Under the pieces are notes generated by a model that saw nothing but the letters and a program-made list of their open reading frames with translations, was not told the origin of the DNA and did no database searches. Shown one piece after another: positions 16,853-32,725 of a DNA stretch of 64,000 bases; the stretch's first letter is position 1; each line of letters opens with the position of its first letter. This stretch comes from Myxococcales bacterium (lineage in GTDB: Bacteria > Myxococcota_A > UBA9042 > JABWCM01 > BTVJ01): NCBI GenBank assembly GCA_045863395.1, contig BTVJ01000032.1, positions 18,159-82,158 of the forward strand, in the 5' to 3' direction. A program made the translations under genes and the position numbers.

Positions 16853-16933
16853 CTGGTCCCAACTCGCCTTTGCCTGGGTGCCGACGGTGCCACTCCCGAG
16901 TCGACGGGTCAACCCTCGTGGGTGTACTGCGGC

Positions 16934-17121
16934 CTCTTAGAGGGTGTATTCAAAATGGCCCGTCGCGAGCGCGTGGGCGCGCCCGCATGGCAAGGAGCGG
17001 GCTTCCCGACGAGGGGGCGCGTACTCGTGGTACTCGTCCCCTCGTCGGGAGGCCCGCGACGCGGCCAAGCGGGATGCGACCGCGCGCGTAGCAGGGCCAT
17101 TTTGAATACACCCTCTTAGGC
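16934..17121. repeat. Hairpin element: ~22-27-bp near-perfect terminal inverted repeats flanking a ~134-bp GC-rich core with a nested hairpin
   Basis: Left arm ctcttagagggtgtattcaaaatggcc (16934-16960); right arm ggccattttgaatacaccctcttagg (17095-17121). 22 bp are perfect, the extension has 1 mismatch. The AT-rich arm core tattcaaaatgg stands out in 70% GC DNA. Inner nested IR cccgacgaggggg...cccctcgtcggg (around 17020-17065). Confidence 0.7.
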
Positions 17122-17274
17122 GCCGGTGCATAATAACCTGATCCATCGAGGGCCCCGATGCGCCCCGCTGGCAGTCTGGCGGGACCGCAGGCAGGGCCAG
17201 GTCCTTCCAAGGTCTCGCCAGGCTGTCAGCGGGGATGCAGCGGGGGCCGAATGGCACAGGTTATTGTGCACCGG
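17121..17274. repeat. Second hairpin element directly abutting the first: 20-bp inverted repeats (1 mismatch) flanking ~114 bp
   Basis: cgccggtgcataataacctg (17121-17140) versus caggttattgtgcaccggcg (17255-17274). Both elements are followed by the pentamer cttag. Confidence 0.65.
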
Positions 17275-17536
17275 CGCCTTAGTCGTAGCGCACCTCCCCG
17301 AGGCACCTCCAGGCCCAAAGCTCCCGGGGGCCCAACGCGTGCGGGGACCACCAATCGCCAGGACCACCAGCGCACTCCCACCACCGGACCCGGGCTTGAC
17401 AGGAACGCCGTGGATGAAGCACCGTAGCGCAGTCGGCACCGTAAGCGCCCGTGCAGTAATGGCCGGTCCATTCTGCCCCTCCTGCATCCCCGCTGCAACC
17501 TGGCGATACCCTGGAAGGACGCGGCCCTGCCTGTGG
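17185..17536. repeat. ~70-bp sequence present twice in inverted orientation (~85% identity), ~213 bp apart
   Basis: The reverse complement of 17185-17254 (ccattcggcccccgctgcatccccgctgacagcctggcgagaccttggaaggacctggccctgcctgcgg) aligns with 17468-17536 (ccattctgcccctcctgcatccccgctgcaacctggcgataccctggaaggacgcggccctgcctgtgg). Compared by eye. Confidence 0.6.
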
Positions 17537-17931
17537 ATTTCCGAGGCTGCCTGCTGGGCGCGTCGAGGCTCTCGATCAATCAGGTTGTCATTTACCGGCG
17601 GCTGATTGGTCTTCGGGACCGTGTCTCAATCATGTCGGCAGAGAGGGGTCAGACCCGACGCCGGGAGCGTTCACCACGCTGGTCCGGCAAGCACATCGGA
17701 CCCCGGGCGAGGGTCCCGTGTCAGAACCGAGGTTCCGAGCGCTCTACGGAAGCGGTCTGAGCAACGGCGCTGAGCCCACGAGCGGCGGGGGGAACACACC
17801 ACGAAGAAACGGGGAGGCGACTCAGGCAGTCACGGCGCGTGAGAGACGTGTCAGACGCGGCGTCGAGATGACTCTACCGTGGAGTCATCGACGGGGCGGC
17901 CGTCGGACGGTGACCCACTCGGAGGTGTCCC

Positions 17932-18717
17932 ATGAGCAAGGGTGCAGTGGTCGGGGTGGTGATGGCGCAGGTGGTGGTGGTCGGGGGCCTGGGGATCTGG
18001 ATGTTCCAGCGGGGCCAGGAGCAGGCGGAGCGGCAGGAGCAGCGCCTCGCAGATCTGGAGGCGGTGACCTCCGAGCGCGTCGCGGCGCTGGAGGAGACCG
18101 TCGAGCAGCAGGGCCACGCCATCGTCGCGCTGGAGGTGGCGGTCCGGGCGGGGAGCGCGGCCCTCGCCGCGCGCGTCGACGCGGTGGAGTCTTCGGTGGC
18201 GAAGCTCGACGCGGAGCGCGTGGCGCCGCTGGAGCGCCGGGCGTCGGGCATCGAGAAGGGGCAGTTGCAGCTCGCCGAGCGCGTCGACCACAACGACGCG
18301 GCGCAGGCCGCGAAGGCGGAGCAGGTGGTCGCCGAGATCTCCTCGGTGAAGGAGGACATGGCGGCCCTGAAGGAGCGCGTGGTCTCCGTGGAGCGGAGCG
18401 CGACCTCGACCGGAGTGGACCTGGCGAAGCTCGCTGCGCTCACGGGGAAGAACGACCGCCGCATCCGCGACCTGGTGGACGAGCACGCGGCCCTGGTCGC
18501 CACCGTGGAGCAGGTGCGGAAGAGCGGCACCCAGGACTCGCGTGAAGCAATCGAGGCCATGGAGCGCAAGCTCGCGAGCCTGGACGCCGCCGTGCGCCTG
18601 GCCGCCGAGCAGGTCACGAAGGAGTACCTGGAGTCGCATCAGGATGACTCCAAGGCGGACATGGCGCGGGAGATTGCTGCCCGCACGCGCTTCGAGGTGC
18701 TGGAGGGGGCGCGGTGA
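17932..18717 (+). CDS. Membrane-anchored coiled-coil protein (261 aa)
   Basis: ATG at 17932 with GGAGG 6 nt upstream. N-terminal TM helix VVGVVMAQVVVVGGLGIWMF. The rest is heptad-like Ala/Glu/Leu/Arg-rich (LADLEAVTSERVAALEETVEQQ...). Confidence 0.65.
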   Translation: MSKGAVVGVVMAQVVVVGGLGIWMFQRGQEQAERQEQRLADLEAVTSERVAALEETVEQQGHAIVALEVAVRAGSAALAARVDAVESSVAKLDAERVAPLERRASGIEKGQLQLAERVDHNDAAQAAKAEQVVAEISSVKEDMAALKERVVSVERSATSTGVDLAKLAALTGKNDRRIRDLVDEHAALVATVEQVRKSGTQDSREAIEAMERKLASLDAAVRLAAEQVTKEYLESHQDDSKADMAREIAARTRFEVLEGAR

Positions 18718-18831
18718 CGGGTGCGGGCGGTGGCGCCGCGGCCGCCCGCGGCTCCACCTCTCCGAGGCTGCGCGACGACGACCCTGGTCCGCGGGGCGAT
18801 GGCAGCAGAGAGCCCTGCAGGAGGAGTGGCG

Positions 18832-19293
18832 ATGAGGGTGACAATCCTGGCTCTGGCGATCATCGTCGGCGGATGTGCGACATCGAGACGGCACGCTCCG
18901 GCGACACCGCAAGCTACGTCAGCGAGCTTCCCCGGAGGCGCATCAGCGCAGGGCGGCGGCTGGGCCACGAGCCCCGTCGGGACCTCCACCCCCGACGTGG
19001 AGGTCCTGTGCGACGGCGCAAGGCCGCAGATCCGGTTCGACGACGCCGCGCGCCAGCGTCTCTTCCCGAAGCACGAGGTCGTGTGGGTCCTGAGCCCCTT
19101 CGAGGGAGGCGGAAAGTGCCGGCTCTACGGCCTCGTGCGGAGGCCCCACCGGGGAGCGACGTTCCCCGACGACGTGCGCCTTCGGGCGACCGCCACGTTC
19201 CCGGACGACGGCGACCGGTGCCGCTGCGTCCCGACCAAGGCGCGGGCCCACGAGGGGTGGTTCCCGTCGGCGATCTCGGAGGTGAACCCATGA
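18832..19293 (+). CDS. Lipoprotein (153 aa)
   Basis: ATG at 18832 with GGAGGAG 8 nt upstream. MRVTILALAIIVGGCATS is a signal peptide plus lipobox (VGGC). Its stop overlaps the next start (ATGA at 19290-19293). Confidence 0.6.
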   Translation: MRVTILALAIIVGGCATSRRHAPATPQATSASFPGGASAQGGGWATSPVGTSTPDVEVLCDGARPQIRFDDAARQRLFPKHEVVWVLSPFEGGGKCRLYGLVRRPHRGATFPDDVRLRATATFPDDGDRCRCVPTKARAHEGWFPSAISEVNP

Positions 19294-20504
19294 GCTTGAC
19301 AGGGCCCCGTGCCCCCGAGGGGGGAGCCGCGCAGCTCGACGGCCCGGACGCGACCGGCGGGCTGCGCGAGCGCCTCGGGTGGGTGCGCCTCGGTTCGGAG
19401 GCCGAGGTCCGCGACCTGCTCACGTCACACCCGGCCTGGGAGGCGCTGGCGCCCATCCGGCAGAGCGCCACGGACGCCCGGGGGGCCATCGCCGACCAGG
19501 GCTTCGAGGTGGATCCCGGCGCGCTGGGCCTCACCCCCATCCTTGCCGAGGCCCGAGAGCGGTGGGGGCTCGCGCTGGACCTGCGCCTCTTGATGGTGCC
19601 GCGGCCGGAGTACAACGCCTTCGTGCTGGCAAACCCCTTCGACGGAGAGGTCGTGCTCGGGGCGTCGTGCTCGCTGGTGGAGGACTTCGAGCCCCGGGAG
19701 CTGGCCTTCGTCATCGGGCACGAGCTCGGCCACCACGCCCTCGGGCACACGGCCATCGCCGGCCGCCGCCGGCAGCTCGCGGATCACGTGGCGCCCCACC
19801 ACCCGCTGCGGCTCCTGGACGCGTCACTGGGGCGGCGGCAGGAGATCAGCGCGGACCGGGCAGGCCTCGTGGTCTGCGGCTCGGCCGCCGCTGCGCGCAC
19901 CGCGCTGCTCAAGGCCGCGACCCAGACGCCAAACCGCCGCCTCGCGGCCGCCGTGCTCGCGGGCGGGCCCGACTGGGCCTTCGTGGACCCGGAGCTGGAT
20001 GGGTTCGCCCCCTGGGCTCAGTCCCACCCGCCAGCGCGGGTGCGCGTCCGCGCCCTGGAGGGCTTCGCGCGGGACGCTGACGGCCACTCCCTCGCCGACC
20101 TGGACGCCCGCTGCGACGGGTGGCTCGATGCGCTGGAGGCCGACGCCCTCAAACGGGATCGGGCCACCGTGGAGCGATTCGCCGCGGCGGTCGGGGCCGT
20201 CGTCGGGGCGACCGCAGGCGTGGCGGAGATTCCGGCGCTCTTCGCGGCCCATGCAGGCCCCTGGCTGGGCCAGGCAGGCGACCTGGAGGACGCCTGCGCC
20301 ACCCTCCGCGAGCTGGCGAGCCCGGGGCGCCGCCTGCGCGTGCTCGCGGCGGCCATCAGCGTGCTGTCCGCGGACCTGCGCCTCGGGGCCGAGGCGGGCG
20401 CCCGGACCCGCGCGCTGGCGACGCGCCTGGGGCTGCCACCGGAGGCAGCGGACCGGCGCCTCGCCGCGGCCCGGGAGTCTTTGGCCCTGCGAGGGACGGA
20501 GTGA
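19290..20504 (+). CDS. M48-like zinc metallopeptidase (404 aa)
   Basis: ATG at 19290, translationally coupled to the lipoprotein gene. LAFVIGHELGHHALGH HExxH motif in an HtpX/Ste24-like context. In frame with, and internal to, the ORF-track ORF 18714..20504. Confidence 0.62.
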   Translation: MSLTGPRAPEGGAAQLDGPDATGGLRERLGWVRLGSEAEVRDLLTSHPAWEALAPIRQSATDARGAIADQGFEVDPGALGLTPILAEARERWGLALDLRLLMVPRPEYNAFVLANPFDGEVVLGASCSLVEDFEPRELAFVIGHELGHHALGHTAIAGRRRQLADHVAPHHPLRLLDASLGRRQEISADRAGLVVCGSAAAARTALLKAATQTPNRRLAAAVLAGGPDWAFVDPELDGFAPWAQSHPPARVRVRALEGFARDADGHSLADLDARCDGWLDALEADALKRDRATVERFAAAVGAVVGATAGVAEIPALFAAHAGPWLGQAGDLEDACATLRELASPGRRLRVLAAAISVLSADLRLGAEAGARTRALATRLGLPPEAADRRLAAARESLALRGTE

Positions 20505-20593
20505 ACCGCGGAGGCACCCGAACGGCCCCGCAATCCAGGGACTCTCAGACACCCGATGGACTCGTCATCGCACCACGACGCGGAGGAGCACCC

Positions 20594-22876
20594 ATGAGGC
20601 GCCGTACACGCCCGACCCCGACCGCAACCATCACACGCCGCGTGGCATGGTTCCGCCTGATGCGGCCCGGCGCCACGCTGGACGACGTGCCCGCCGCCAT
20701 CGTGCGGGCGTTGCGTGAGCTGGGGGACGCGCACCCGCTGCGCCTCGCCGTCACGACCCTCACCGGGACAGACAGCCCGACGGTGGACACATGGGTGTCC
20801 ATCACCTCCGACCAGGAGGCTGCCTCCGCTGCGCTGAGCACGCTGCAGGAGGCGCTGGGGTGGTTCTCTCTCGGGACGGCCGACTGCTCCGCCGCGCTCC
20901 ACGAGCACCGGGAGCGCCTCCCGGAGCAGCTCGCCCTCGTGCCCCACCCCGCCGATGGGAGCCTGCTGCTACCACGAGGGCCCGCTGCGGTTCAGCCCCT
21001 GCCCGCGCTGCTGGCGCACCTGGCTCGGCAGGGCACGCCCACCATGGTCCAGGTGGAGGCGAGCACCGTGGGCCGGGACGAGGCCCTCGCGGTCGTCCCG
21101 GCGCTGCGCACGGCCCGCGCCGTCGCCGACGCCCTGGCTCCGCACCGCCTGGACGTGGCCTCACCGCAGGACCTGCTCGCGCCCCCGATGGCCCTGCGCG
21201 GGGCCGACCCGGAGCGTCTCATCGCCGACGTGGTGGGAAACCTGTGGCGGGTCCGCGTCGCGGTGCGCTCCGCGCGTCCCCTGCCCGAGCGCGTCACCAC
21301 GGCCATCCGCCTGGCCTTGGAGGAAGGCGGCGTGCGGCTCGCGCAGGAGGCGACTTCCCCTGCCACGGGCGCCGGCATCGTACACACCACGGTCCTGCCG
21401 GCGGTGTGGCAGGTCCCCGTCGTCACAGCCCCGTGCGGCCACCTGCGCGTCGAGGACCTGCCGCGCCTGCCTGCCCCCGTCGGGGCGCTGGACAAGGGCT
21501 TCCTCCTCGGCGAGACCGACGACGGCCCGCGCACCCGGGAGCTGCGCCTGGACCCGGAGGTCCTCGGACGCCACGCCTACGTGGTGGGCAAGACGGGCAC
21601 CGGCAAGACCACCCTGCTGGAGTCTCTGGTGGCCAGCGCCATCGAGCGCGGCGACCAGGCGGTCATCGTCGTCGACCCCCATGGCGACATGACCGAGAAG
21701 CTCCTGCGTTGGCTCCCCCGGGAGCACGCGGACCGCGCCTTGGCCATCGACTTCGGTGACCCGGAGCGGCTGCCGTCCCTCAACCTCCTCGAGGCCCGCG
21801 ACGAGCAGGAGCGCGAGTTCGCCATCGGCGAGCTGGACGCGCTCTTCCTCGACATGTACGGCCCGGAGATCTGGGGGCCGCGCCTCCAGGACACCTTCCG
21901 CAACCTGGCGTCGCTGCTGAGCATCGACCCGGAAGGTCCCGGCACCCTCGTCGACCTGCTGTGGGCGGCCAACCTGCGCCACGACCCCATCCGGCACCGC
22001 CTGGAGGCCATCGCCGAGTCGTCCGGCTCCATCTCACACCGGATCTTCCTGGAGCAGATCCAGCAACGACAGTACGGCGACGGGTCCCTGCAGGAGCTGG
22101 TGGCCTACTACCGCTCCAAGTTCTCGCCCTTCGTGGACAACAAGACGCTGCGCCTCGTGCTCGGGCGCCCCAAGTCCACCCTGGACATCGCCCGGTTCAT
22201 CCGCGAGCGCCGCGTCTGCCTGTTCAACCTCAACAAGGGCCGCATCTCGTCCCGCTACGCGAGCCTCATCGGGCGCATCCTGACCGCGCGCATCTTCCAG
22301 GCGGCCCTCGCAAACGGACGCCTCCCCCCGGCCGAGCGCCCACCGGCCCTGCTCGTGCTGGACGAGTTCCAGAACCTCGTGTCCCCCACCGTCGAGGACA
22401 TCCTGGCCGAGGCGCGCAAGTACCGCCTCAGCGTCGTCCTCGCCAACCAGCACCTGGCCCAGGTGCGCAGGAGCCGCACCGACGTGCGGGGAGACCGCTC
22501 GTCCATGCTGGACGCCATCTTGGGCAACGTAGGGACGCTCGTCGCGTTTCGGCTCTCCGGGCTCGACGCGACACAGCTCGCCGCGGAGCTGGGGGGCCAC
22601 GTACCGGCCGAGACCCTCTCGTCGCTGCCGGCGTGGCACGCGGTCTGCCAGGTGAGCGAGAGCCATCGGTGCGTGCCCCCGTTCCTGGCGCGGACGCGCC
22701 CGATTGGCGCGTGTGGAGACCCGAGCGTCGCGCGATCTGTCAGAAGCCGCAGCCGGCGGACTCTCTGTACCCGGCTGGACGACGCGGAGCGGGCGATCCG
22801 CCAACGCGTGCTCAGCCGCATGGGCATCGTGGACGTGCCGGACGACCCCGTCGGGCACCTGCTGGAGAGGCTGTGA
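20594..22876 (+). CDS. FtsK/HerA/TraD(VirD4)-family P-loop ATPase with ~400-aa N-terminal domain (760 aa)
   Basis: ATG at 20594 with GGAGGAG upstream. Walker A HAYVVGKTGTGKTTLLESL. Walker B ALLVLDEFQNLV. VLANQHLAQV, a sensor-like motif. In frame within the ORF-track ORF 20120..22876. Confidence 0.75.
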   Translation: MRRRTRPTPTATITRRVAWFRLMRPGATLDDVPAAIVRALRELGDAHPLRLAVTTLTGTDSPTVDTWVSITSDQEAASAALSTLQEALGWFSLGTADCSAALHEHRERLPEQLALVPHPADGSLLLPRGPAAVQPLPALLAHLARQGTPTMVQVEASTVGRDEALAVVPALRTARAVADALAPHRLDVASPQDLLAPPMALRGADPERLIADVVGNLWRVRVAVRSARPLPERVTTAIRLALEEGGVRLAQEATSPATGAGIVHTTVLPAVWQVPVVTAPCGHLRVEDLPRLPAPVGALDKGFLLGETDDGPRTRELRLDPEVLGRHAYVVGKTGTGKTTLLESLVASAIERGDQAVIVVDPHGDMTEKLLRWLPREHADRALAIDFGDPERLPSLNLLEARDEQEREFAIGELDALFLDMYGPEIWGPRLQDTFRNLASLLSIDPEGPGTLVDLLWAANLRHDPIRHRLEAIAESSGSISHRIFLEQIQQRQYGDGSLQELVAYYRSKFSPFVDNKTLRLVLGRPKSTLDIARFIRERRVCLFNLNKGRISSRYASLIGRILTARIFQAALANGRLPPAERPPALLVLDEFQNLVSPTVEDILAEARKYRLSVVLANQHLAQVRRSRTDVRGDRSSMLDAILGNVGTLVAFRLSGLDATQLAAELGGHVPAETLSSLPAWHAVCQVSESHRCVPPFLARTRPIGACGDPSVARSVRSRSRRTLCTRLDDAERAIRQRVLSRMGIVDVPDDPVGHLLERL

Positions 22877-23691
22877 TGAGCAGCGAGCCAGTTGACCGGG
22901 CCAGGCGCCGGGCGCTCCCGCTCCTGCCCGCGGCGCTGTGCGCCATCGCCGACGGCGCGCCCACCGCCGCGCGCCGGGTGGCGTTGCTCCGGGCGATCCG
23001 CGCCATGGGAACGCCGTGGGAGGCGACGGCGCTCCTGCTCACCATCCTCGAAGAGCGGGCGGTCCGCCCGGAGCACATCCGCTCCCTCTATGCCCTGCGG
23101 GCGCTCCTGGTCGAAGAGAGTGCCACGGAGGCCCGCACAGAGGAGGCGCTCGGCTACGCCGCCGATGTGGCGCTCGCGGGCGGGCCGGGCGTGGACCAGC
23201 TCGCGGTGCTGGCGGCGGCCACCAGCGCGCTGGATGGGGACTGGGAGGTGCTCTCCAGGCGCGGGATCCCTGGCCGCCCGACCTCCGAGGATACGCGCGC
23301 CACGATGCGGAGCATCCTCGCGCGGGAGGTGACGCCGCCCCACGAGAACCCCATCGACCTGTTCCGCGGCGCCCTCCCCATCGCGGGCCTCCCGACCCCG
23401 GGCAGCGCGGACCCTGTGCGCTTCTACGACGGCCTGGCCGGGTCCATCTCTCTGGCTCCACAGGAGCGGATCGCCGTCGTGGAGAGGCTCGGGAGCCTCA
23501 CCCAAGTCCAGATCGACGCCCTGGTCGGGATCTTCGAGGAGGAGCGCGTCAAGTTCCTGTCGCTGGACGAGACGCACTACCCCCAGCTCCGCAGGCTGGC
23601 CGTCGAGTTCGGGGTGCAGTGGATCGAGGTCTACGAGGGCCTCACGGGGCGGCACGTCGTCACGCCCCGGCGGCGCGCAGGCGACGCTTGA
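22876..23691 (+). CDS. Hypothetical protein (271 aa) coupled to the ATPase gene
   Basis: ATG at 22876 overlaps the ATPase stop codon (GTGATGA). Part of the ORF-track ORF 21961..23691. No recognisable motif. Confidence 0.5.
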   Translation: MSSEPVDRARRRALPLLPAALCAIADGAPTAARRVALLRAIRAMGTPWEATALLLTILEERAVRPEHIRSLYALRALLVEESATEARTEEALGYAADVALAGGPGVDQLAVLAAATSALDGDWEVLSRRGIPGRPTSEDTRATMRSILAREVTPPHENPIDLFRGALPIAGLPTPGSADPVRFYDGLAGSISLAPQERIAVVERLGSLTQVQIDALVGIFEEERVKFLSLDETHYPQLRRLAVEFGVQWIEVYEGLTGRHVVTPRRRAGDA

Positions 23692-23780
23692 CAAGAAACG
23701 ACGCGAGCGCTGTGATGCGCGGCGGTGGTCTGCCTCTTGACGCCGAAGGGAGACAACCGCCGGACGCAGAGGAGTCGGGG

Positions 23781-25862
23781 ATGGCGACAGACCGCGCAGA
23801 CAAGGAAGAGGTCACGCAGGATATCCAAGACGAGGCGCAGCGCGCCGTCGCGGAGCGCCTCGTGGAGCTCAGCTCGCGGGGGACTGAGCTCCCCAAGAAC
23901 CACGGGACGGTGATGAAGCTCGTCGTCACTCGGCTCCGCAGAGCGCTCAAGCAAAGCAAGGTGCAGGAGGACCGCTCGTCGATCAGTGCGTGGTGCCGCG
24001 CGGACACCTGCGCCACCGCGCTGCGCGTGCGCTACATGGAGGATACGGGCACCGACCTCAGGGACGCTGCCAGACGACGGTACACCGGGCTCGGGTTCAG
24101 CCCGGAGGACGCGGAAGAGTGGGCGGGCCGCATTGAGATTCGGTACTATGAGTCGGGGCCCAGCACACAGTTGGGGGAGCACTCGACAGAGTCCGACGTC
24201 TCGTACGTGACGCTTGCGTGGCTGAAGACGGTCACCCTGAACGACGCCCTCAACCGTCGGCGCAGGGGGTGGAGGGTCACGGCCTGGGACGACGCGGACT
24301 GCCCGGCCGATGAGGTCACCGCGGCCGGAGGCCCGCAGGGTGCCCCACCGCCGGCACCGGACAAGCTGGTGGAAGCCCGTAACATGCTGGACCGCATTGC
24401 AGACCTCGTTCCCACGCTCCAACGCCGCGTCGCGCTCGTCGCGTCCGACATGCTGGCCCACCCGGACGACGAGCCGGCCGAGAGGGCGCTGCGACTGAAC
24501 CTGACACCAGGGAACATCCACACGCAGACCTATCGGTTCAGGCAGGCGCTGGCCGCGGCCGACCTCTGCCGGCGGTCCAGTACAGCAGCAGTGACACCCG
24601 AGGATCCGGACGACGGCCCCGGGGGAGCGGGGAGAGGAAGGAAGACCATGAGCGCGCGAGACACGGTCGGAAAGGACCGCGCAGCGAAGAGCCAGCGCAC
24701 GGCTCCACGGACCCAGACACCAGGCGGAGCCACGGGACCAGGCCCGGCGGTCGACTCCGCCACGGGTCAGGCCCCGCTCCTCGCGGAGGCTGCCCGAGTG
24801 GTCGGGGACCTCGTGCTGAGCGGCCAGCGGGTCGACGCGGAGGCGCTGGCCTCGGAGGCGCGCGGCGCCCGGGGAGCCGTCGAGGCGGCGCTGGAGGCCA
24901 CGGACGGCGCGCTGATCGACGAGGCCATGCCCGGGCTCGCGGAGACCGGCGCCTGGCTGGCCGCGCACCCGGACCCCGCCACGCTACCGAACGAGGTCGC
25001 TGAGGCTTCCCTCGCGGTCCTCGAACGGCGACACCATGTGGAGGCGCTGCTTCTGGGGGCCGAGCAGATCGTGGGACGCCGCGTCGCGAGCATGGACCTC
25101 GCGACGTCCCTGGAGGCCTTCGACACGGCGGGACGCGAGACCCTCTGGGCCTTCGTGCCCTTGAACAGTGCGCGACGCGCGCGCGCCGCGGCGCTCGACC
25201 CGGAGGCGCGCGAGAGGTGCTGGTGGTGGTCCGAGGGGGCAGACCTCGCAGAGGACTCCGTGCTCGCGCTGCGCAAGGCAGCTCGACTCATCGCGGTGTT
25301 CCCGGCGGCGCAGGGGGAGCTGGACGCGCTGATCGCGGCGGCCCGCGAGACCCGCGCCGAGGCCATGCGGACCACGAAGGGACACTCCGCCAGGCGGATG
25401 GCGAGCCGCGGGAGCCCGGAGAGGAGCGCACCGGGCGACAAACGTCTCAGGGTGGGAGACATGAGAGTGACCACCGCCGCGGGGGCGCCGGACAACGACG
25501 CCGAACGGCTGGGCGTCGTGTACTTCCTGCAGTTCCGCGCGGTGCCAGGGCACGACAATGAGCGCCTGGTCGCCCACGGCAGCGAGGAGGAGGTCGTTGT
25601 CAGACCGCTCGACGGAGTCACTCTCTCCGTGGACGACGACGCGCTGATCATCGACTATGAGATGTCCTGCGACCCCGACCCGAGCAGACCTCCGGTGCTG
25701 GAGCCGGAGCGAGGAGCGATCATCGTGGCGACAGAGCCGTTCACTGGGCGCTTCGTGCTGCCATTCCAGTCCATGGACACGGCCAGCACGACCGCGATAC
25801 TCCGCGTGCCCCGGCGCGACCAGCCGGACCTGGTCGTGCAGATCCCCTGGGAGGTGCCATGA
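23781..25862 (+). CDS. Sigma-70 (ECF-type)-like N-terminal domain fused to a ~420-aa C-terminal domain of unknown function (693 aa)
   Basis: ATG at 23781 with GAGGAG 7 nt upstream. SYVTLAWLKTVTLNDALNRRRRG resembles sigma region 2.4 (WLxxIxxNxxxDxxRRR). LQRRVALVASDMLAHPDDEPAERALRLNLTPGNIHTQTYRFRQAL resembles region 4 (HTH). The first kb is lower GC than its surroundings. Its stop overlaps the next start (ATGA). Confidence 0.5.
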   Translation: MATDRADKEEVTQDIQDEAQRAVAERLVELSSRGTELPKNHGTVMKLVVTRLRRALKQSKVQEDRSSISAWCRADTCATALRVRYMEDTGTDLRDAARRRYTGLGFSPEDAEEWAGRIEIRYYESGPSTQLGEHSTESDVSYVTLAWLKTVTLNDALNRRRRGWRVTAWDDADCPADEVTAAGGPQGAPPPAPDKLVEARNMLDRIADLVPTLQRRVALVASDMLAHPDDEPAERALRLNLTPGNIHTQTYRFRQALAAADLCRRSSTAAVTPEDPDDGPGGAGRGRKTMSARDTVGKDRAAKSQRTAPRTQTPGGATGPGPAVDSATGQAPLLAEAARVVGDLVLSGQRVDAEALASEARGARGAVEAALEATDGALIDEAMPGLAETGAWLAAHPDPATLPNEVAEASLAVLERRHHVEALLLGAEQIVGRRVASMDLATSLEAFDTAGRETLWAFVPLNSARRARAAALDPEARERCWWWSEGADLAEDSVLALRKAARLIAVFPAAQGELDALIAAARETRAEAMRTTKGHSARRMASRGSPERSAPGDKRLRVGDMRVTTAAGAPDNDAERLGVVYFLQFRAVPGHDNERLVAHGSEEEVVVRPLDGVTLSVDDDALIIDYEMSCDPDPSRPPVLEPERGAIIVATEPFTGRFVLPFQSMDTASTTAILRVPRRDQPDLVVQIPWEVP

Positions 25863-27589
25863 CCCTGCCGCTCGCAGCCAGGGCGCTGCTCGACCTGGGA
25901 GTCCCGCGGTCCGCGGCGGCGCTGCTCGCCTCGACCAGTGACCGGGGGCACGAGATCGGCGCGCTCCGCTCTCAGGCTTACAAGCGGCGGATGAGGCGGC
26001 TTGCCGCGGGCTTCTATGGGGTCGTCGTGCATGCAGACGTGGGACTGGTCCTTCCGCTGCACGTCGAGCGAGGAGTGGCGCGGGGCGCCCGGGACGACGC
26101 AAGCCTCGCCGCCTCCCAGCGGCTGGCCAACCAGCACGCGCGAGCGCTCTTCTCGGATTCGTCACGGCTCCCATCACTCATCGTTCGCCTGCCCGAGGAC
26201 CTCGGTATCCAGGGAAGCTCCCTCGGCCTCGCGTCCTTCCTCGCGTTCGTCGCGCGCCTGGCTGGCATCGAGCCACGGCAGCCCATCGCGGCGCTCGGCG
26301 ACCTGTGCTCGGGGGACACAGTCGGCTCCGTGGGCAGAGACGGGCCCAAGCTCGCGGCCATATCGCGCGACCTCACCGGCCAGGATGGCCTCGTGCTCGT
26401 GACTCCGGAGGACTCCTCTGCGATCCCCCGTGACATCCGGACCATCCAGATTGAGACCCTCGGCGACGCCTTGCGCGCGGTCTTCGGCCGGACGAAGTTC
26501 AGGGCGGCGTTCGAGGTCGTGTCGCTGGAGGACATGCTTCGGACCTGTCGCAGAGAGACCGACTCGGAGCGGGTAGTGAAGCATCTGGGCGGGATCCGCA
26601 CCGACACCCTCCCGGTCGCCGATCAAGCCGAGGTCTTGATGCTCCTCGGGACTCACATGCGACACTTGGGCCGGACGGACGAAGCCCGAAGCTGCCACGA
26701 GGAGGCCGCGACGCTCCTCGAGGAGGCGGAGCCCGCACTGGGCGCCGCTCACATCGAGGACCTGCGCATGGAGTGCCTGGCCACCGAGGTCGACCGCTTC
26801 GAGCTGGAGGATCTCGAGTCCCGGCTGCGGGCGCGCCTCGCCGAGCCCTTCGCGACGCTCCACAACCGGGTCCGGTGCGCGGGAATGCTCTCCCAGGTCG
26901 TCTCCATGCGCGGGCGCCCCGATGAGGCGCTGCGGATCCGAGAGCCAAACCTGGAGATTCAGACTCGGCACGCCGGCATGCGGGACGAGATCCCGTGGAC
27001 GTTGTGTGCCCTGGTGCTGGAGGCCGCGAGGGCCAGGAAGACCGAGGCGTTCCGCCGCTTCGGGGTGCGGCTCCTCGAGGAGACGAGCGCGGGCGACGCG
27101 CACCAGGAAGGCTTCAACACGGCGGCACTCTCCCGCGGCCTGGCGTTGCTGGACCCTGCCGCGCTGGTCGCATGGGCGGACGGCGGCGACCTCTGGTCCC
27201 ACGCGGCACCCCTGCACCTCCAGGCTCTGGCCAGCGGGCACCCCGTCGATGGCAACCCGGGCCTCTCGACTGCGAGGGCGCTGGTCCGGGCGCTTCGGGT
27301 CAACGGGCAGCCGCACCGCGCGGTCGCTGTCGCCCGCTCCGTCGCCCTGCCCGCGCACCCGCTGGCGCGATGGGTGGGGGCGCTCGCGCTGATCGAGGGG
27401 GCGCTCGCAGCCGCAGAGTCAGGCACAGACCCACTTCCCCTGTGGACGGCGGGGCGCCGGACGCTGGAGTCAGCCCACCCCGCCGCCGCGCGATTCCACG
27501 CGGAGCTGGGGATGCTGGACGCGGCGCCGCCGGCGCGGGAGGCGGACGTCGCAGCGCTGGAGTCACACATCGACCACGTGTGGTACTGA
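25859..27589 (+). CDS. Lon-like S16 peptidase domain (Ser-Lys dyad) protein with C-terminal TPR-like helical region (576 aa)
   Basis: ATG at 25859 (ATGA overlap). LIVRLPEDLGIQGSSLGLASFLAFVARL, with the Ser in a GxSxG-like context, and ~44 aa later IAALGDLCSGDTVGSVGRDGPKLAAISRDLTGQDGLVLVTPED, match the Lon proteolytic-domain pattern (vAmTGEi..G.V.pIGG..eKllaA..aG...vilP). The remainder is helical repeats. Confidence 0.55.
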   Translation: MTLPLAARALLDLGVPRSAAALLASTSDRGHEIGALRSQAYKRRMRRLAAGFYGVVVHADVGLVLPLHVERGVARGARDDASLAASQRLANQHARALFSDSSRLPSLIVRLPEDLGIQGSSLGLASFLAFVARLAGIEPRQPIAALGDLCSGDTVGSVGRDGPKLAAISRDLTGQDGLVLVTPEDSSAIPRDIRTIQIETLGDALRAVFGRTKFRAAFEVVSLEDMLRTCRRETDSERVVKHLGGIRTDTLPVADQAEVLMLLGTHMRHLGRTDEARSCHEEAATLLEEAEPALGAAHIEDLRMECLATEVDRFELEDLESRLRARLAEPFATLHNRVRCAGMLSQVVSMRGRPDEALRIREPNLEIQTRHAGMRDEIPWTLCALVLEAARARKTEAFRRFGVRLLEETSAGDAHQEGFNTAALSRGLALLDPAALVAWADGGDLWSHAAPLHLQALASGHPVDGNPGLSTARALVRALRVNGQPHRAVAVARSVALPAHPLARWVGALALIEGALAAAESGTDPLPLWTAGRRTLESAHPAAARFHAELGMLDAAPPAREADVAALESHIDHVWY

Positions 27590-27605
27590 GGGGGAGAGGC
27601 TCACC

Positions 27606-28376
27606 ATGTCCACCGGAAGGACCATCATCATCGGAGACGTCCACGGCTGCATCGACGAGCTGGAGGCGCTGCTCCGCCACGTGTGCCTGGAGCCCCGAGA
27701 CCGCCTCGTGTTCGCCGGCGATCTCGTGGATCGTGGGCCAGCCTCGGTGGGAGTCGTCCGGAGGACCAGGGAGCTCCTGGCGCGGCACCCGGGGAGCGTC
27801 TGTGTGGCGGGAAACCACGAGACGAAGGCGCTGCGATGGCGGGATCGAGGCGCGCCGAGGGAGTGGGAGCAGCCCATGCGCGAAGACGACTGGACGTTCC
27901 TCGACTCCCTCCCGCTGGTCATGCGCCTGCCCGAGCACGGCGCCACCGTCGTGCATGGCGGAGTCTTCCCGGCGTTCTTTGAGCGGTACGGGCGCATCGG
28001 CGAGGTCCCTCCTGACTGGCGCACGAGCCGCGACAAGCGCTGCGACCGTCTCCGCCGCTTCGTCCTGGTCCGGCACGTGGACTTGCGGGGAGAGATGACG
28101 GCGCTGGGATCGGAAGGGCCCGACACGGTCCACTGGACGGCACGCTACGACGGCCGGGAGGGCCACGTCTTCTTCGGCCACGACCCGCAGCTCGGCGGAG
28201 AGCCACTACAGACGCCGAGCGCGACGGGGCTCGACACCGCCTGCTGCTTCGGGGGCCGCCTGACCGCAGCGGTGCTGCACCCGGGGCAAACCGCGGCGGA
28301 GGCCGAGTTCGCGAGCGTCCCCGGCACCCGCTACGCCGAGCCGCGGTGCATGCTCGACGAGACCGGCGCGCTCTGA
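27606..28376 (+). CDS. Calcineurin-like metallophosphoesterase (PPP-family Ser/Thr phosphatase / ApaH-like), 256 aa
   Basis: GGAGAGG RBS. Motifs IIIGDVHGC, FAGDLVDRGP and VAGNHE. Confidence 0.8.
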   Translation: MSTGRTIIIGDVHGCIDELEALLRHVCLEPRDRLVFAGDLVDRGPASVGVVRRTRELLARHPGSVCVAGNHETKALRWRDRGAPREWEQPMREDDWTFLDSLPLVMRLPEHGATVVHGGVFPAFFERYGRIGEVPPDWRTSRDKRCDRLRRFVLVRHVDLRGEMTALGSEGPDTVHWTARYDGREGHVFFGHDPQLGGEPLQTPSATGLDTACCFGGRLTAAVLHPGQTAAEAEFASVPGTRYAEPRCMLDETGAL

Positions 28377-28441
28377 TCACGAGGGGGGCCCAAGGTGGGG
28401 CCCTCGTCAAGCGCGGGGACACCCCCCGCACGGAGGAAACC

Positions 28442-28630
28442 ATGGGAAGCCTGACCGCCTGTCCGCGCTGCGGACGCACACTGACCAAGTCACTTCTGGG
28501 AGGGGCCTTCTTCCCGGTCTCCAAGTGCCTCAAGTGCGGCACGAAGTACTGCAAGGACTGCGGCGGCACGAAGTGCCCGAAGTGTGGGGCCTCCGACCGC
28601 ATGGAGACCGACAAGGTCTACGCGCGCTGA
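28442..28630 (+). CDS. Small zinc-ribbon protein (62 aa)
   Basis: ATG at 28442 with GGAGGAAACC upstream. CPRCG...CLKCG...CKDCGGTKCPKCG gives four CxxC pairs. Its 3' end overlaps, convergently, the end of 28618..30438 by 13 bp. Confidence 0.5.
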   Translation: MGSLTACPRCGRTLTKSLLGGAFFPVSKCLKCGTKYCKDCGGTKCPKCGASDRMETDKVYAR

Positions 28631-30438
28631 CCCGTCAGGGTCTCGGCGGTGACGGGCAGCTCGATGCGCGTCCGGCAGCCCTCGGTGCAGTCGAGCGTGA
28701 GCGTGGAGGAATCGGGGTCCCAGCCGCGGTATAGGAAGAGCCGCTCGGTGCCACAACCGCGGCAGTGAGCGGACAGCGCGAAGGGACCCGCCGAGAGCGG
28801 TGACGCGCCGCCGCGCAGATACACGTAGGTCAGCTCTTCGTCGCCGAGCCAGAGCCCCGTCTCCAGAGACTCGGCGCTGAAGACGACCCCACGCTCCTCA
28901 CGCCGCGCCAGATCCGTGAAGCGATAGACGTGGAGGGTCGTGGCCGCGTCGTGCCCGAGCTGGTCGATGACCGCCAGGTCCACCGCGCGGAGCGCCGGCA
29001 GGGCCTCGACGAGGCCCACCCAAGCGGCCCGCAACTGCTCGACCTGCCGCGGATCCGTGATGGGGCGTCCGTGGGCCTCGTCGTTGCGGGCATCGCGCAG
29101 GGAGCGGAGCGCATCCGAGGAGAGCACCGGACCCAGCTCCGCCGCGAGCCGGACCGGGAGGGCGGGGGAGGCATCCCGTACGGCTCGGCCCAACGCCCGC
29201 TGGAAGGACGTTCGGATCCGCGCGACGTCCATGAGTCCTCGGCGACCGCGGCTCAGGTGCTCCATCACGCCGTCTCCACCTCCTGGAAGCCGCCGGAGCC
29301 CGAGGATCAGGACCAGCTCGATGAAGGCCAGGAGCTGCTCCAAGTGAGTCACGACGGCCCGGACGACCGCCCCGGAGCGAGCGCGTGGTGAGGCCGCGAT
29401 CACCGCCTGGCGACGAAGAGGCCAGGGAAGCGCGGCCGCGCACCAGGCTCTGCGAGCTGCCTCCCAGGACGTGGCAGCAACGGTCTCCAGCTCCTCCCGA
29501 AGGCGCGCAGGAGCGCCTGCAACGACCCCATGCAGCGCGGCCAGACCCCACGCCAGCTCGATGAAGTGCCAGGCCCGCACCTCTGGGAAGTCGGGGCACG
29601 GCCGCCGCGTCTCCCGCACCTGGAGGATGTGACGCGCCAGGTCCAACAGGACGACCCGGGTCTCCTCCGTGACGGCGCCGCCATCGATCGAGAGATCCAG
29701 CAGGGTCGCGAGGCACGCCAGCCGGGGCGCGTAGACGAAGGAGAGCTTGTATCCCTCGGCCGTGAAGAAGGAGTCCTCCTCGGCGAAGCGAGGAGACACC
29801 AGCTCCGCCATGAGCCACCGGCGCGCCCGAGCCTGGGACTCGGGTGGGATCGCGCCTCGCAGCGACGTGAGGGCGAGGGACGTGCCGAGGCGACTCGGAG
29901 GACCGCCCGGGCGAAAGGGCCAGGCACCGGTGTCGAGCTGCAGAGAAAGTAGCCGCGCATGGTCTGGAGTCACGTCACACGTGTTGGAGAGCGCGAGGAT
30001 GGAGTAGGCCGTGCTGTAGGTGCGGACGTCTGGACTATCGTCACTGACGCCCCAGCCTCCATCGGGGAGCCGCGCACCTTGGAGCCACGAGCGCGCTCGC
30101 TCGATCACAGACGATCCGCGGCCGCGGGCCCCCGCGCCGAGCAAGAAGGCCGCGGTGGCGTCCACGATGGAGACCGGTCTCCCACACGCGGGCTCGGCAT
30201 AGGGGAGACCGGCCTGGCTTCGCTCCAGAGCGGCCTCCAGGAACCGTTCAGATGTCTCCAGCGCGAAGTTCAGAGTGTCCGAGAGCCGGGGAAGCGCCGC
30301 GAGGGCCCCATAGATCTCTGCCGTGGTCCAGCAGCCGCTCCGGTCCCCTGCGTAGGTCTCGGGAAAACCCCCGTCCGGGTTCTGCCACGATGCCACGTCG
30401 TCGAGGGCGGTCAGCCCCACGCGCAGCAGCTCGTTCAC
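28618..30438 (-). CDS. Terpene cyclase / prenyltransferase-like (alpha-alpha toroid repeat) protein (606 aa)
   Basis: Repeats with QNPDGGFPETYAGD and LPDGGWGVSDD (squalene-cyclase/prenyltransferase-type QW-like motifs). GTG start at 30438 without a clear RBS, so the start is uncertain. Last gene of the minus-strand block. Confidence 0.55.
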   Translation of the reverse strand: MNELLRVGLTALDDVASWQNPDGGFPETYAGDRSGCWTTAEIYGALAALPRLSDTLNFALETSERFLEAALERSQAGLPYAEPACGRPVSIVDATAAFLLGAGARGRGSSVIERARSWLQGARLPDGGWGVSDDSPDVRTYSTAYSILALSNTCDVTPDHARLLSLQLDTGAWPFRPGGPPSRLGTSLALTSLRGAIPPESQARARRWLMAELVSPRFAEEDSFFTAEGYKLSFVYAPRLACLATLLDLSIDGGAVTEETRVVLLDLARHILQVRETRRPCPDFPEVRAWHFIELAWGLAALHGVVAGAPARLREELETVAATSWEAARRAWCAAALPWPLRRQAVIAASPRARSGAVVRAVVTHLEQLLAFIELVLILGLRRLPGGGDGVMEHLSRGRRGLMDVARIRTSFQRALGRAVRDASPALPVRLAAELGPVLSSDALRSLRDARNDEAHGRPITDPRQVEQLRAAWVGLVEALPALRAVDLAVIDQLGHDAATTLHVYRFTDLARREERGVVFSAESLETGLWLGDEELTYVYLRGGASPLSAGPFALSAHCRGCGTERLFLYRGWDPDSSTLTLDCTEGCRTRIELPVTAETLTGQRA

Positions 30439-30510
30439 ATGGTCACCGATTGGCCGAAGGGCCGGAGATGCCCCAGGACTGAACCTCGAGAGTCGCTCGT
30501 CGATGGATGC

Positions 30511-30867
30511 TCAATGGACCACCCGGTCGGTCTGGCAGATCACGTAGGCCTCAAGCGGGGAGCTACACTCCTTGCCGCGCACGAACCGGCCCTTGACGGT
30601 CACGCGCGTGCCGGTGGGAGGGGGCGATGCCCCTTGGACCCACACGCTCCCCTCGTCCTTGACCACCTTGTACCAGTCGAGATCCACCACGGGCGTGTCC
30701 AGGCGCAGGCTGACGACGCCGCTGACACACACCTCCTTGCCGAGGAAGGCCGCCGGATTCCCAGCCAGCTTCGCTGGGTCCTCGCAGGCAGCCTCGTAGA
30801 GGTCGCTGCAGCGGCAGCCCGCCACCCAGATCAGAACCACGCCCAGCGCCAACACCATCCACTTCAT
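30511..30867 (-). CDS. Small lipoprotein (118 aa)
   Basis: ATG at 30867 (plus CAT 30865-30867) with AAGGAGG 7 nt upstream. MKWMVLALGVVLIWVAGC is a signal peptide plus lipobox. Internal to the ORF-track ORF 30511..31449. Confidence 0.65.
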   Translation of the reverse strand: MKWMVLALGVVLIWVAGCRCSDLYEAACEDPAKLAGNPAAFLGKEVCVSGVVSLRLDTPVVDLDWYKVVKDEGSVWVQGASPPPTGTRVTVKGRFVRGKECSSPLEAYVICQTDRVVH

Positions 30868-30982
30868 GGGCTCGCCTCCTTGGTCATGAGAGCCCCACGC
30901 CGAGGCGATCTGACAGACAGACGCCTGCCACCGGCGAACCCATCGTTCCAGGAACGTGGGACGCGACAGGCACCATGGGCCC

Positions 30983-31963
30983 TCACGAAGACACCGGCGA
31001 TGATCGGACCATGCGGAAGCCCGACGTGTCGTCGTGCCAGTCCGGCGTCGAGTAGTGGCGGAGCGATGCACGGAGCGAAGCCGCGGTCGAGACCCAGGAT
31101 CCGCCCCGCGACACGCGGCCCGTGCCCTGGGCCGGGCCCGTGGGGTCGTCCACGGCTCCCGCGGGATACTCACCATAGCGATCCCAGCACCACTCCCAGA
31201 CGTTGCCCAGTACGTCGTGGAGACCCCACGCGTTGGCCGCTCGCTCCGCAACGCGCTGAGGTGCGCGGACTGCGTCCGCACGGCTCCAGGCAATCGCCGG
31301 AACTGCCCCATAGGTAGGGCCGGTCGAGCCAGCCCGGCAGGCGTACTCCCACTCCGCCTCGGTGGGGAGCCGGTAGCCCCCCGTGTGGTGGGCGGCGAGG
31401 ACCCTGTCACACCGGAAACCGGCTCCCGCCGCGCGACCGTTGCTCCCAAAGTAGGCGTAGCACGGCGTCAGGCCCTCCTTCAACGACAGGGCGTTGCAGT
31501 ACCACACGGCGTCATACCAGCTCACGTTGACCACCGGAGCCAGGGGATCTCCACCCCTTGCCCCGCCCGGGAGGCTCTGTAGCAGCCCCGCCCACTCTCC
31601 GTTGGTGACGGGGCACACCTGAATCAGGAACGGGCGCGTGAGGGTGACGACGTGCTGGCGCTCGTCCCCGAAGCGACCGGGCTCGTCCCTGGGCGCCCCC
31701 ATCGGGAACTGGCCAGGCTCGACCCGCACCCAGCCAGGCGGAACGGAAGGAGGCTGCGGGCCAGGGCCGCCCGGATCGACCGGGTACCCGTCCAGCACCG
31801 CCTCCACATCGTCAGGGTGGACGCCCACGGCCACACCGCGCTCCGCGAGGACCGCGCGCGCCCGAGGCGTGATGGCACCGTAGGCGCATACTGCGAGGTC
31901 AACCGCGTCGCGAAACCTGGCGAGAGCCTCTGGGTCCGAGAGAACGAACGTGAGGTCGGACAC
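30983..31963 (-). CDS. Formylglycine-generating-enzyme (FGE)/sulfatase-modifying-factor domain protein (326 aa)
   Basis: GTG at 31963 with AAGGAGG 5 nt upstream. RLPTEAEWEYACRAG...GNVWEWCWD...RGGSW are FGE-sulfatase hallmark motifs. Confidence 0.78.
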   Translation of the reverse strand: MSDLTFVLSDPEALARFRDAVDLAVCAYGAITPRARAVLAERGVAVGVHPDDVEAVLDGYPVDPGGPGPQPPSVPPGWVRVEPGQFPMGAPRDEPGRFGDERQHVVTLTRPFLIQVCPVTNGEWAGLLQSLPGGARGGDPLAPVVNVSWYDAVWYCNALSLKEGLTPCYAYFGSNGRAAGAGFRCDRVLAAHHTGGYRLPTEAEWEYACRAGSTGPTYGAVPAIAWSRADAVRAPQRVAERAANAWGLHDVLGNVWEWCWDRYGEYPAGAVDDPTGPAQGTGRVSRGGSWVSTAASLRASLRHYSTPDWHDDTSGFRMVRSSPVSS

Positions 31964-32698: not shown

Positions 32699-32725
32699 GG
32701 GACCTCCCGGCGCCCCGCGGGCGCC

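Follow-up and report, generated by a model that had tools for sequence, protein, structure and literature searches.

Do nine neighbouring genes of a Myxococcales bacterium act as one system and, if so, is it a defence system built around a HerA ATPase? The genes, here called g1 to g9 (Table 1), lie on the plus strand at 17932-28630 of a stretch of contig BTVJ01000032.1; by "the window" we mean the whole stretch of DNA that was analysed, 64 kb long. A sequence-only reading had seen in them a HerA ATPase working with effector proteases. We find that the cluster combines two separable modules with a few accessory genes and is not a single HerA-plus-effector system. Module A comprises an M48 peptidase (g3), a P-loop ATPase (g4) and g5. 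Module B pairs a sigma-like fusion protein (g6) with a putative Lon-type protease carrying TPR repeats (g7). Whether the two form a composite signalling cassette, in which module B is a sigma switch opened by proteolysis and tied to the ATPase and peptidase of module A, is in our judgement evenly balanced.

Since the G+C content of the window is ~72%, raw lists of open reading frames were useless. We called genes by third-position GC (GC3) frame analysis and refined their starts against identical database proteins (P0001, P0028, P0033) and relatives. This gave nine co-directional plus-strand genes, as the sequence-only reading had described. Each of the nine has a homolog on at least one further contig. 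The ratio of non-synonymous to synonymous divergence (dN/dS) of g5-g9 from their closest relative, contig L089, is 0.05-0.39, hence these are real genes under purifying selection. The start of g4 was taken from the identical protein P0001, and a GTG at 20501 is doubtful. The three stop/start overlaps counted earlier are genuine: ATGA at 19290 (g2/g3), GTGATGA at 22873-22878 (g4/g5) and ATGA at 25859 (g6/g7). The whole cluster is densely packed in 10.7 kb, with gaps of 89-90 nt upstream of g4 and of g6. The gap between g5 and g6 holds a promoter-like site, TTGACA-N17-TGTGAT, which is conserved in L089; the TTGA at 23688 is probably its -35 box. Scans for promoters and terminators returned nothing above background, and no Rfam family occurs in the window.

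The related contigs show how the cluster comes apart. A Myxococcota metagenome-assembled genome (L001; g4 66% identical) has g1-g7 in order, lacks g8 and has a displaced g9. In L089 (g7 79% identical), g5-g9 and the same downstream flank are kept. Two contigs from related JGI samples, L093 and L099, present the permuted order g6-g7-g3-g4. Modules A and B thus co-exist in about three lineages (the window, L001 and L099/L093) and in two gene orders. Each module also occurs by itself: L003 (g4 43% identical) encodes the M48 peptidase, the ATPase and g5 without g6 or g7, and L090-92 and L096-98 carry module B without the ATPase. The expectation that the ATPase always lies beside the Lon/sigma pair therefore holds for the window, L001 and L099/L093 and fails in L003, where genes for XPB-like helicases are found instead. 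The idea that the pair are effectors of the ATPase does not survive either, as the pair occurs without it. The co-conservation of A and B is real but partial. Module A is a separable unit with a conserved M48-ATPase-g5 triad that recurs in three lineages, in one of them apart from module B, and module B is autonomous and much more widespread than the ATPase. Two scans of GTDB-representative genomes gave no confirmed relative.

The g6-g7 pair

Pfam misses the Lon domain of g7 and returns only a TPR match below threshold. A profile search of the PDB retrieved Lon-family proteolytic domains (Lon, LonB-type and BrxL) in 24 of 24 matches, the best at 8.8e-5 and BrxL at 0.002. Ser121 (codon 26219-26221) and Lys164 (codon 26348-26350) are invariant in five homologs and lie 43 residues apart, the spacing of the S679/K722 dyad of E. 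coli Lon. In the hidden Markov model alignment, they fall on the catalytic Ser and Lys of A. fulgidus Lon. The AlphaFold2 (AF2) model has a predicted local distance difference test score (pLDDT) of 88.3 and resembles the proteolytic (P) domain of E. coli Lon (Foldseek TM-score 0.64-0.69, root-mean-square deviation 3.4-3.6 Å). In the model the last 350 residues make up a TPR superhelix that most resembles NprR, a peptide-binding quorum sensor (TM-score 0.56). We found no AAA+ match and no Walker A motif in g7, where the model places only ~45 helical residues ahead of the P-domain, and no SAVED or CARF match in Pfam. Model and alignments indicate that g7 is a Lon Ser-Lys proteolytic domain that lacks the AAA+ part of LonA and LonB and is fused to TPR. 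Its family has five members, with no relatives in IMG/VR and no match in plasmids.

The AF2 model of g6 (47-sequence alignment, pLDDT 80.5) consists of four confident domains and disordered linkers at residues 164-189, 266-323 (pLDDT <50) and 557-601. The first two domains are helical (residues 10-165, mean pLDDT ~86-97; residues 193-260, ~69-86). They correspond to sigma2 and sigma4 with a linker between them and without region 3, which is the layout of extracytoplasmic function (ECF) sigma factors. All of the top 50 PDB matches in Foldseek are sigma-factor chains or models of sigma with RNA polymerase; the ECF sigmas SigH, SigL and RpoE lead the list (probability 1.00), and the alignments span both sigma2 and sigma4. 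An exhaustive phmmer search over 1.84 billion representatives found three full-length relatives and three matches of ~200 aa. Two of the latter, P0127 and P0157, are bona fide ECF sigmas (Pfam Sigma70_r2 and r4_2) and match residues 145-260 of g6 with library-wide values of 3.6e-5 and 8.4e-4. Judged by predicted fold and remote homology, the N-terminal part of g6 is ECF-sigma-like. The domain calls of the sequence-only reading were all correct, including the sigma-like and Lon-like ones, which escape Pfam; structure prediction and the exhaustive searches confirmed these two.

The C-terminal part of g6 (pLDDT >90) contains a helical domain, WWW (residues ~330-530, signature RxR[FLC]WW[WR]xxG), and a small beta domain. 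The WWW part is matched in phmmer by ~120 representative clusters of stand-alone proteins of ~350 aa. The wider WWW/Lon/sigma family is almost solely metagenomic, and WWW has no relatives in IMG/VR. A profile of 46 WWW sequences matches no PDB chain with E <1, CalpT included. Searches of the PDB with profiles of g6, the WWW domain, g5 and a Cys-rich 200-aa protein found in related loci gave nothing significant.

In several relatives the parts of module B are encoded separately. In L090-92 the g7 homolog (36% identical) is preceded by separate genes for a sigma-like protein (245 aa) and a WWW protein (336 aa). The order in L096/97 is a sigma-like protein (217 aa, with weak Sigma70_r2/ECF matches), a Cys-rich protein (219 aa), a WWW protein (363 aa) and a Lon-TPR protein (608 aa, 34% identical to g7). 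The sigma-like protein has its own gene in L091, L096 and L098; in the first two, sigma-like, WWW and Lon-TPR proteins are adjacent single genes, in that order. P0086, P0106 and P0113 are fusions with WWW on the N-terminal side of the Lon domain. Since WWW occurs fused to either partner, Rosetta-stone logic links the sigma, WWW and Lon domains. By its position and these fusions, the WWW and beta part of g6 is a candidate sigma-binding or adaptor (anti-sigma-like) module.

One of the WWW-Lon fusions is encoded beside a CRISPR-Cas system. On L098 (1-10103) the gene for P0106, a 549-aa protein with a ~150-aa C-terminal domain without assigned type, comes right after a type III-B cmr2-cmr6 operon with reverse transcriptase-Cas1 (RT-Cas1) and Cas2. 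Genes for a 230-aa sigma-like protein and a Cys-rich 197-aa protein stand ahead of it, and a gene for an MJ1673-type protein follows. An association of the MJ1673-type family with type III CRISPR systems has been reported (PMC3973734). The L098 set may be a CalpL-like ancillary module not yet described, without a recognisable SAVED domain.

The linker of g6 carries a Shine-Dalgarno-like purine run, GGGGAGAGGAAGGAAGACC, followed by an in-frame ATG (24627-24650). This site uses the rare codons AGA and AGG and is kept in the window, L089, L001 and L099, and the methionine in question, M290, maps to the N-termini of stand-alone WWW proteins. Because the conserved internal ATG falls where stand-alone WWW proteins begin, a separate WWW-beta product is possible. 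Alternatively, the site may be a relic of gene fusion or a recognition site.

The g3-g4-g5 triad

The peptidase g3 matches Pfam Peptidase_M48 (1.8e-15; 57.7 bits against a cutoff of 20.3). It has HELGH at ~residue 144 and EISAD at ~residue 185, i.e. the HExxH motif and the downstream ExxAD zinc ligand of M48 enzymes. It is atypical for M48 in having neither a transmembrane (TM) segment nor a signal peptide by hydropathy, and this is the case for all of g3-g9. Homologs of g3 adjoin the ATPase gene in L001 (63% identity), L093 (47%) and L003 (37%).

The ATPase g4 has Walker A (GKTGTGKT) and Walker B (LLVLDEFQ) motifs. Its Pfam matches are TrwB_AAD_bind (8e-13), DUF87 (9e-10), TraG-D_C (9.7e-7) and T4SS-DNA_transf (3.4e-6); TrwB_AAD_bind, TraG-D_C and T4SS-DNA_transf are all over their cutoffs, as in the NTPase of coupling proteins. 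The same affinity appears in NCBIfam (SXT_TraD, 3.2e-12) and in the PDB, where the best match is TrwB (2.5e-5); PADLOC gives mad8 (1.9e-20). HerA profiles score below those of TraD and TrwB, so that the ATPase is better placed in the TraD/TrwB/VirD4 type than among the HerA ATPases of the sequence-only reading. The N-terminal domain of ~300 aa is lineage-specific and unique. Hydropathy reveals no hydrophobic segment in g4 that could be the N-terminal TM anchor of a coupling protein. The full-length family has three members among 5.8 billion clusters.

More distant relatives of g4 share the NTPase half alone. On plasmids they are 25-31% identical and annotated as DNA-binding proteins of type IV secretion systems (T4SS); we inspected two, and neither lies in a T4SS operon. 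A metagenome search with the ATPase alignment yielded 80 loci with ~30% identity, no other gene of the cluster, and housekeeping genes as neighbours. Wider relatives of the ATPase (L006, L013, L028 and others among L009-L088) also show ~30% identity, lie mostly on low-GC contigs and often have an N-terminal treble-clef zinc finger (zf_Tbcl_2). Their neighbours include SecDF, SecA, PGK, MurJ and LepA, and they are frequently near a protein with Sigma70_r4 and HARE-HTH domains.

The third member, g5, has no match in Pfam, NCBIfam, PADLOC, PHROGs or the PDB profile search. Its homologs lie directly 3' of the ATPase gene in L001 (41% identity) and L003 (25-29%). Downstream of the triad on L003 (12268-17365) come an 85-aa gene and genes for an ERCC3/XPB-like helicase and a Helicase_C_3 protein, and upstream lies an M10 peptidase gene. 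From this locus it seems that module A can take other modules as partners.

What the cluster may do

We propose that module B is a switch. The ECF-type sigma of g6 would be inactive while tethered, covalently in this lineage, to the WWW and beta domains. A peptide or protein ligand that binds the TPR part of g7 would activate its Lon protease, which has no ATPase, and g7 would cut or degrade the linker of g6 or its WWW inhibitor part. The freed sigma domain would bind RNA polymerase and alter transcription, the likely targets being its own operon and the neighbouring conflict-type genes. Module A would consist of a soluble hexameric TraD/TrwB-like NTPase with the cytosolic M48 peptidase and g5. 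It is linked to module B and is most likely placed upstream: it may sense or translocate foreign DNA or protein and pass a proteolytic signal, which the M48 peptidase would make, to the TPR-Lon protein. Alternatively, module A may be the executing arm.

The conflict-type domains encoded in the window are CHAT, NUDIX, two FGE-sulfatase (FGS) domains, one of them fused to a kinase, Tubulin_2, a DO-GTPase2-like domain, NYN, PspA, an AAA-AAA-REC-M41 fusion, a vWA/PP2C/kinase triad and a giant protein with a DUF6782 metallopeptidase-like region. Domain types of this kind have been described in conflict systems of multicellular bacteria (PMC7159879).

Precedents for such a switch exist. In CalpL/CalpT/CalpS (CalpLTS), cyclic tetra-adenylate (cA4) activates a SAVED-Lon protease that cleaves the anti-sigma CalpT, and the ECF-like sigma CalpS goes to RNA polymerase. 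This system and the TPR-CHAT/Csx30/CASP-sigma set are experimentally established protease/anti-sigma/sigma triads (10.1101/2024.05.08.593097; PMC11229360). In both CalpLTS and g6-g7, a Lon Ser-Lys protease without AAA+ and with a sensor domain is encoded beside an ECF-type sigma and its partner; here the sigma is recognised by the predicted N-terminal fold of g6, and its gene overlaps that of the protease by ATGA. The P0106 gene behind its cmr operon recalls CalpLTS as well. The differences are also clear. The sensor is TPR in g7 but SAVED in CalpL. CalpLTS belongs to a CRISPR context, whereas the window has no CRISPR-Cas system or cyclase and not a single cas gene, type III or other. CalpT shares no sequence similarity with the WWW and beta part, which is fused to the sigma. 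The Lon sequence of g7 is nearer to archaeal LonB, LonA and BrxL than to CalpL, which is not among its PDB matches.

Craspase (type III-E gRAMP, TPR-CHAT, Csx30 and the CASP-sigma RpoE) also combines a TPR protease with an ECF-type sigma: its TPR-CHAT protease cleaves the sigma-binding Csx30 and releases the sigma (10.1101/2024.05.08.593097). Its protease is, however, a caspase-like CHAT with RNA-guided activation, whereas g7 has a Lon S16 domain and gRAMP is absent. Within the same phylum, M. xanthus has a CBASS/type III-B island under the control of the ECF sigma DdvS and of DdvA, its TPR-CHAT anti-sigma (PMC11506125). As in g6-g7, an ECF sigma has a TPR-protease partner, and DdvS regulates neighbouring defence genes. 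DdvA, however, sits in the membrane, its anti-sigma domain being a zinc-bound three-helix one and its TPR-CHAT part lying in the periplasm; g6 and g7 are soluble proteins that rely on a Lon domain and lack the CHCC anti-sigma motif.

For module A, the comparison is with TrwB/TraD/VirD4 and with the HerA/FtsK "capture" ATPases such as DndH and MADS Mad8 (PMC10853773). The NTPase of g4 belongs to the same superfamily, but g4 differs from them in its unique N-terminus, its missing TM anchor and the absence of a T4SS, relaxase, nuclease or methyltransferase partner. The cluster contains no NurA, Sir2, DUF4297 or restriction endonuclease partner as in the HerA systems (HerA-NurA, HerA-Sir2/DUF4297, DndH). 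BrxL of BREX, like g7, has a Lon-type proteolytic domain in a multi-gene defence context; it has an ATPase module and no TPR, and the cluster has no BrxC, PglX or PglZ. Against PADLOC-DB v2, g4 matches at the domain level only (mad8, HerA, DndH), g3 and g5-g7 match nothing, and no system has its full complement. BREX, MADS, Shango and the other PADLOC systems were rejected for want of their markers. A prophage or phage origin was rejected too: matches in PHROGs are generic, g7 and WWW have no relatives in IMG/VR, and g7 is absent from plasmids. The literature that we searched holds nothing relevant on an M48 peptidase paired with a HerA/TraD ATPase in defence. The sequence-only reading did not recognise the arrangement as a described one, and rightly so. 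Apart from the domain-level mad8 match of g4, neither the triad of M48 peptidase, coupling-protein-like ATPase and g5 nor its union with the Lon-TPR/sigma switch is described in PADLOC or in the searched literature.

A bolder version of the cassette, which we consider improbable, makes it a CRISPR-independent counterpart of CalpLTS and Craspase. Module A would detect an invading DNA-protein substrate and produce a peptide or protein signal, the TPR part of g7 would read it, the sigma would be cut from a covalently fused inhibitor of new fold, and the myxobacterial conflict island would be turned on. WWW/Lon/sigma would then be a widespread, hitherto unrecognised family of immune transcription switches with exchangeable sensors, TPR in some and CRISPR-linked in others.

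Several observations weigh against the cassette. Some concern the sigma call. g6 reaches no curated sigma threshold (no match to Pfam Sigma70_r2 or r4_2; NCBIfam NF008888 at 3.2e-4, 20.4 bits against a cutoff of 204), which is why this call rests on fold and remote homology. An hhalign comparison of g6 with RpoE is insignificant (E 0.096). Others concern the inhibitor. No similarity of WWW to CalpT, to Csx30 or to a known anti-sigma domain was detectable, and a WWW-beta protein may also be made separately from the internal start, which complicates the covalent tether. As for the union of the modules, each occurs alone, so their functional coupling is not obligatory, and the promoter-like site between g5 and g6 suggests that g6-g9 could be transcribed separately. 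Only ~5 lineages are known, all of them metagenomic Myxococcota-like contigs; since these are related, shared synteny inflates the apparent co-conservation. Finally, PADLOC matches no neighbour to a validated defence system, generic AAA and NYN matches apart.

The same observations can be read as two or three unrelated neighbours brought together by island structure and shared descent: the M48-ATPase-g5 triad, a g6-g7 switch acting on other genes, and g1-g2 with g8-g9. The solitary modules (L003; L090-92, L096-98), the 89-90 nt gaps before g4 and g6, the conserved promoter-like site before g6 and, in L001, the absence of g8 and the displacement of g9 would all fit. However, the modules are still adjacent after the rearrangement seen in L099/L093, all genes are co-directional and tightly packed, and the full-length g4 and g7 families (three and five members) are extremely rare, yet overlap in most known cases. 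We therefore find it doubtful that the modules have nothing to do with each other.

A third explanation is a housekeeping cascade, in which g1-g2 and the M48 peptidase report damage and g7 releases the sigma, in the logic of RseA/DegS/RseP; it could serve envelope stress or development. Envelope quality control is the classical role of ECF sigmas and M48 peptidases (HtpX, BepA), and Myxococcota have many developmental ECF sigmas. The membrane anchor of g1, the lipoprotein g2 and the PspA gene of the window are in line with this. We nevertheless think it unlikely. As g3-g9 have neither TM segments nor signal peptides, no component links the cytosolic proteases with the periplasm. A housekeeping pathway should be far more common than this cluster, the neighbours of the cluster carry conflict-type domains, and a WWW-Lon relative sits inside a type III-B CRISPR locus. 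Moreover, synonymous divergence (dS) from L089 across 22873-36601 forms a mosaic: it is 0.09-0.12 in the flank (d1, NUDIX and CHAT genes), ~0.28 in g8 and g9, 0.33 in g5, 0.62 in g7 and 0.80 in g6. This points to recombination or allelic exchange of the cluster, independent of its flank.

A role of g4 in conjugation as a type IV coupling protein, with the cluster as cargo of an integrative or conjugative element, a possibility which the sequence-only reading had raised against its own proposal, is scarcely credible: the best family matches (TrwB, TraD, VirD4, TraG-D_C) and the annotation of the plasmid-borne relatives point that way, but the window holds no relaxase, VirB4 or other T4SS gene, integrase or tRNA or other RNA gene in its 64 kb, L001 and L003 have no T4SS or relaxase genes, g4 has no TM anchor, and its relatives are either plasmid proteins similar over the NTPase half and, in the two cases inspected, outside T4SS operons, or lie among housekeeping genes.

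To our knowledge, protease-opened sigma switches have so far been tied to type III CRISPR systems (CalpLTS, Craspase), and they are among the few prokaryotic immune outputs we know of that act through transcription and not killing. The cluster and the ~120-cluster WWW family suggest that the same logic exists outside CRISPR, with a TPR sensor, another sigma-binding fold and a covalent fusion of sigma and inhibitor. The switch would here be coupled to a module of M48 peptidase and coupling-protein ATPase not described before. If the cassette is real, it gives a testable entry into how Myxococcota regulate large conflict islands, defines a new uncharacterised protein domain (WWW) and supplies engineers with a compact transcription switch that a protease triggers. 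Should the modules be unrelated or their role lie in envelope stress, the find shrinks to a rare variant of ECF-sigma regulation.

Flanking genes and surroundings

Table 1. Genes of the cluster, domains of g6 and g7, and the divergent neighbour u5, in window positions. HTH, helix-turn-helix.
Feature	Description	Position	Strand	Basis
g1	Membrane-anchored coiled-coil protein, 261 aa	17932-18717	+	GC3 frame, hydropathy
g2	Lipoprotein	18721-19293 (signal from ~18829)	+	Lipobox, hydropathy
g3	Cytosolic M48 zinc metallopeptidase with C-terminal helical extension	19290-20504	+	Pfam, motifs
g4	Soluble TraD/TrwB/VirD4-type P-loop ATPase (FtsK-HerA superfamily)	20594-22876	+	Pfam, NCBIfam, PDB
g5	272-aa protein, no recognised fold	22876 (or 22873)-23691	+	Coupled to g4
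g6	Sigma-like fusion, complete gene	23781-25862	+	Start matches P0033
g6, N-terminal part	Predicted sigma2 ~23808-24275, sigma4 HTH ~24357-24560	23781-24560	+	Foldseek, phmmer
g6, linker	Predicted disordered	24576-24755	+	pLDDT
g6, C-terminal part	WWW helical domain ~24756-25415, beta domain ~25593-25850 (predicted)	24756-25862	+	AF2, homologs
g7	Predicted Lon (S16) domain ~26006-26512 and TPR superhelix ~26525-27586	25859-27589	+	PDB profile, AF2
g8	Lambda/NinI-type PPP metallophosphatase	27606-28376	+	Pfam, PHROG
g9	62-aa double zinc ribbon	28442-28630	+	Four CxxC motifs; L089 call
u5	1022-aa helical protein with three C-terminal TM helices	13844-16912	-	Divergent neighbour

The envelope proteins g1-g2 and the phosphatase and zinc ribbon g8-g9 are lineage-specific accessories of the two modules. 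g1 has a single TM helix (residues 4-25, by hydropathy) followed by a coiled coil, and family searches gave weak coiled-coil matches only; its homolog in L001 is 33% identical and in the same position, and L003 has none. g2 begins with a signal peptide, MRVTILALAIIVGG|C, with the lipobox IVGGC. It has no match in Pfam, PADLOC or NCBIfam and is 59% identical to its homolog in L001.

g8 presents the three motifs of PPP phosphatases (GDxHG, GDxVDRG, GNHE) as GDVHG, GDLVDRG and GNHE. It matches Pfam Metallophos (5.4e-17), the NinI-like Ser/Thr phosphatase of PHROG (2.1e-28), an ApaH-like family of NCBIfam (4.3e-25, under the cutoff) and, weakly, PDC-S10 of PADLOC. Its homolog in L089 is 89% identical. 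In the same contig g9 was called as a 62-aa protein, 97% identical, and in L001 g9 is 77% identical and has moved ~4 kb downstream. The 65-nt gap between g8 and g9 holds a G+C-rich inverted repeat (28378-28410), GAGGGGGGCCC...GGGGCCCTC.

The gene upstream of g1 and divergent from the operon is u5. Homologs take this position in L001 (49% identity, 3900-6932) and L099 (48%, 1-1390), in the latter even though the operon there starts with g6. u5 has no family match and is possibly linked to the cluster. It heads a membrane-associated operon on the minus strand, with a Tubulin_2 gene (8069-11902) and a gene for a 1417-aa protein with a DUF6782-like HEYTH region (1842-6095). The intergenic region between u5 and g1 (16930-17603) is ~600 nt longer than in L001 or L099. 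It contains two adjacent elements that resemble miniature inverted-repeat transposable elements (16930-17125 and 17115-17282), with 32-nt terminal inverted repeats and TTAG/CTAA bounds, and a long imperfect palindrome (17118-17603); the repeat arms are found nowhere else in the window.

Downstream, the minus strand carries a run of conflict-type genes at 28618-41896 and 46108-51326, among which PADLOC finds no known system. They encode the 606-aa protein d1, an FGE-sulfatase, a NUDIX protein, a 1291-aa CHAT protein and an 887-aa protein, and further a DO-GTPase2-like protein, PspA/IM30, an NYN protein, a 737-aa protein and a kinase-FGE-sulfatase fusion. On the plus strand, at 42687-45935, lies the gene of a 1082-aa fusion of AAA (Cdc48-like), REC, AAA and FtsH-type M41 domains, with no TM segment annotated and a match to IetA of PADLOC (1.7e-38). 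Genes for a vWA protein (53684-55477), a PP2C phosphatase (52748-53620) and a Ser/Thr kinase (51874-52830) follow on the minus strand (51874-55477), a set that we take to resemble the "TerY-P" triad.

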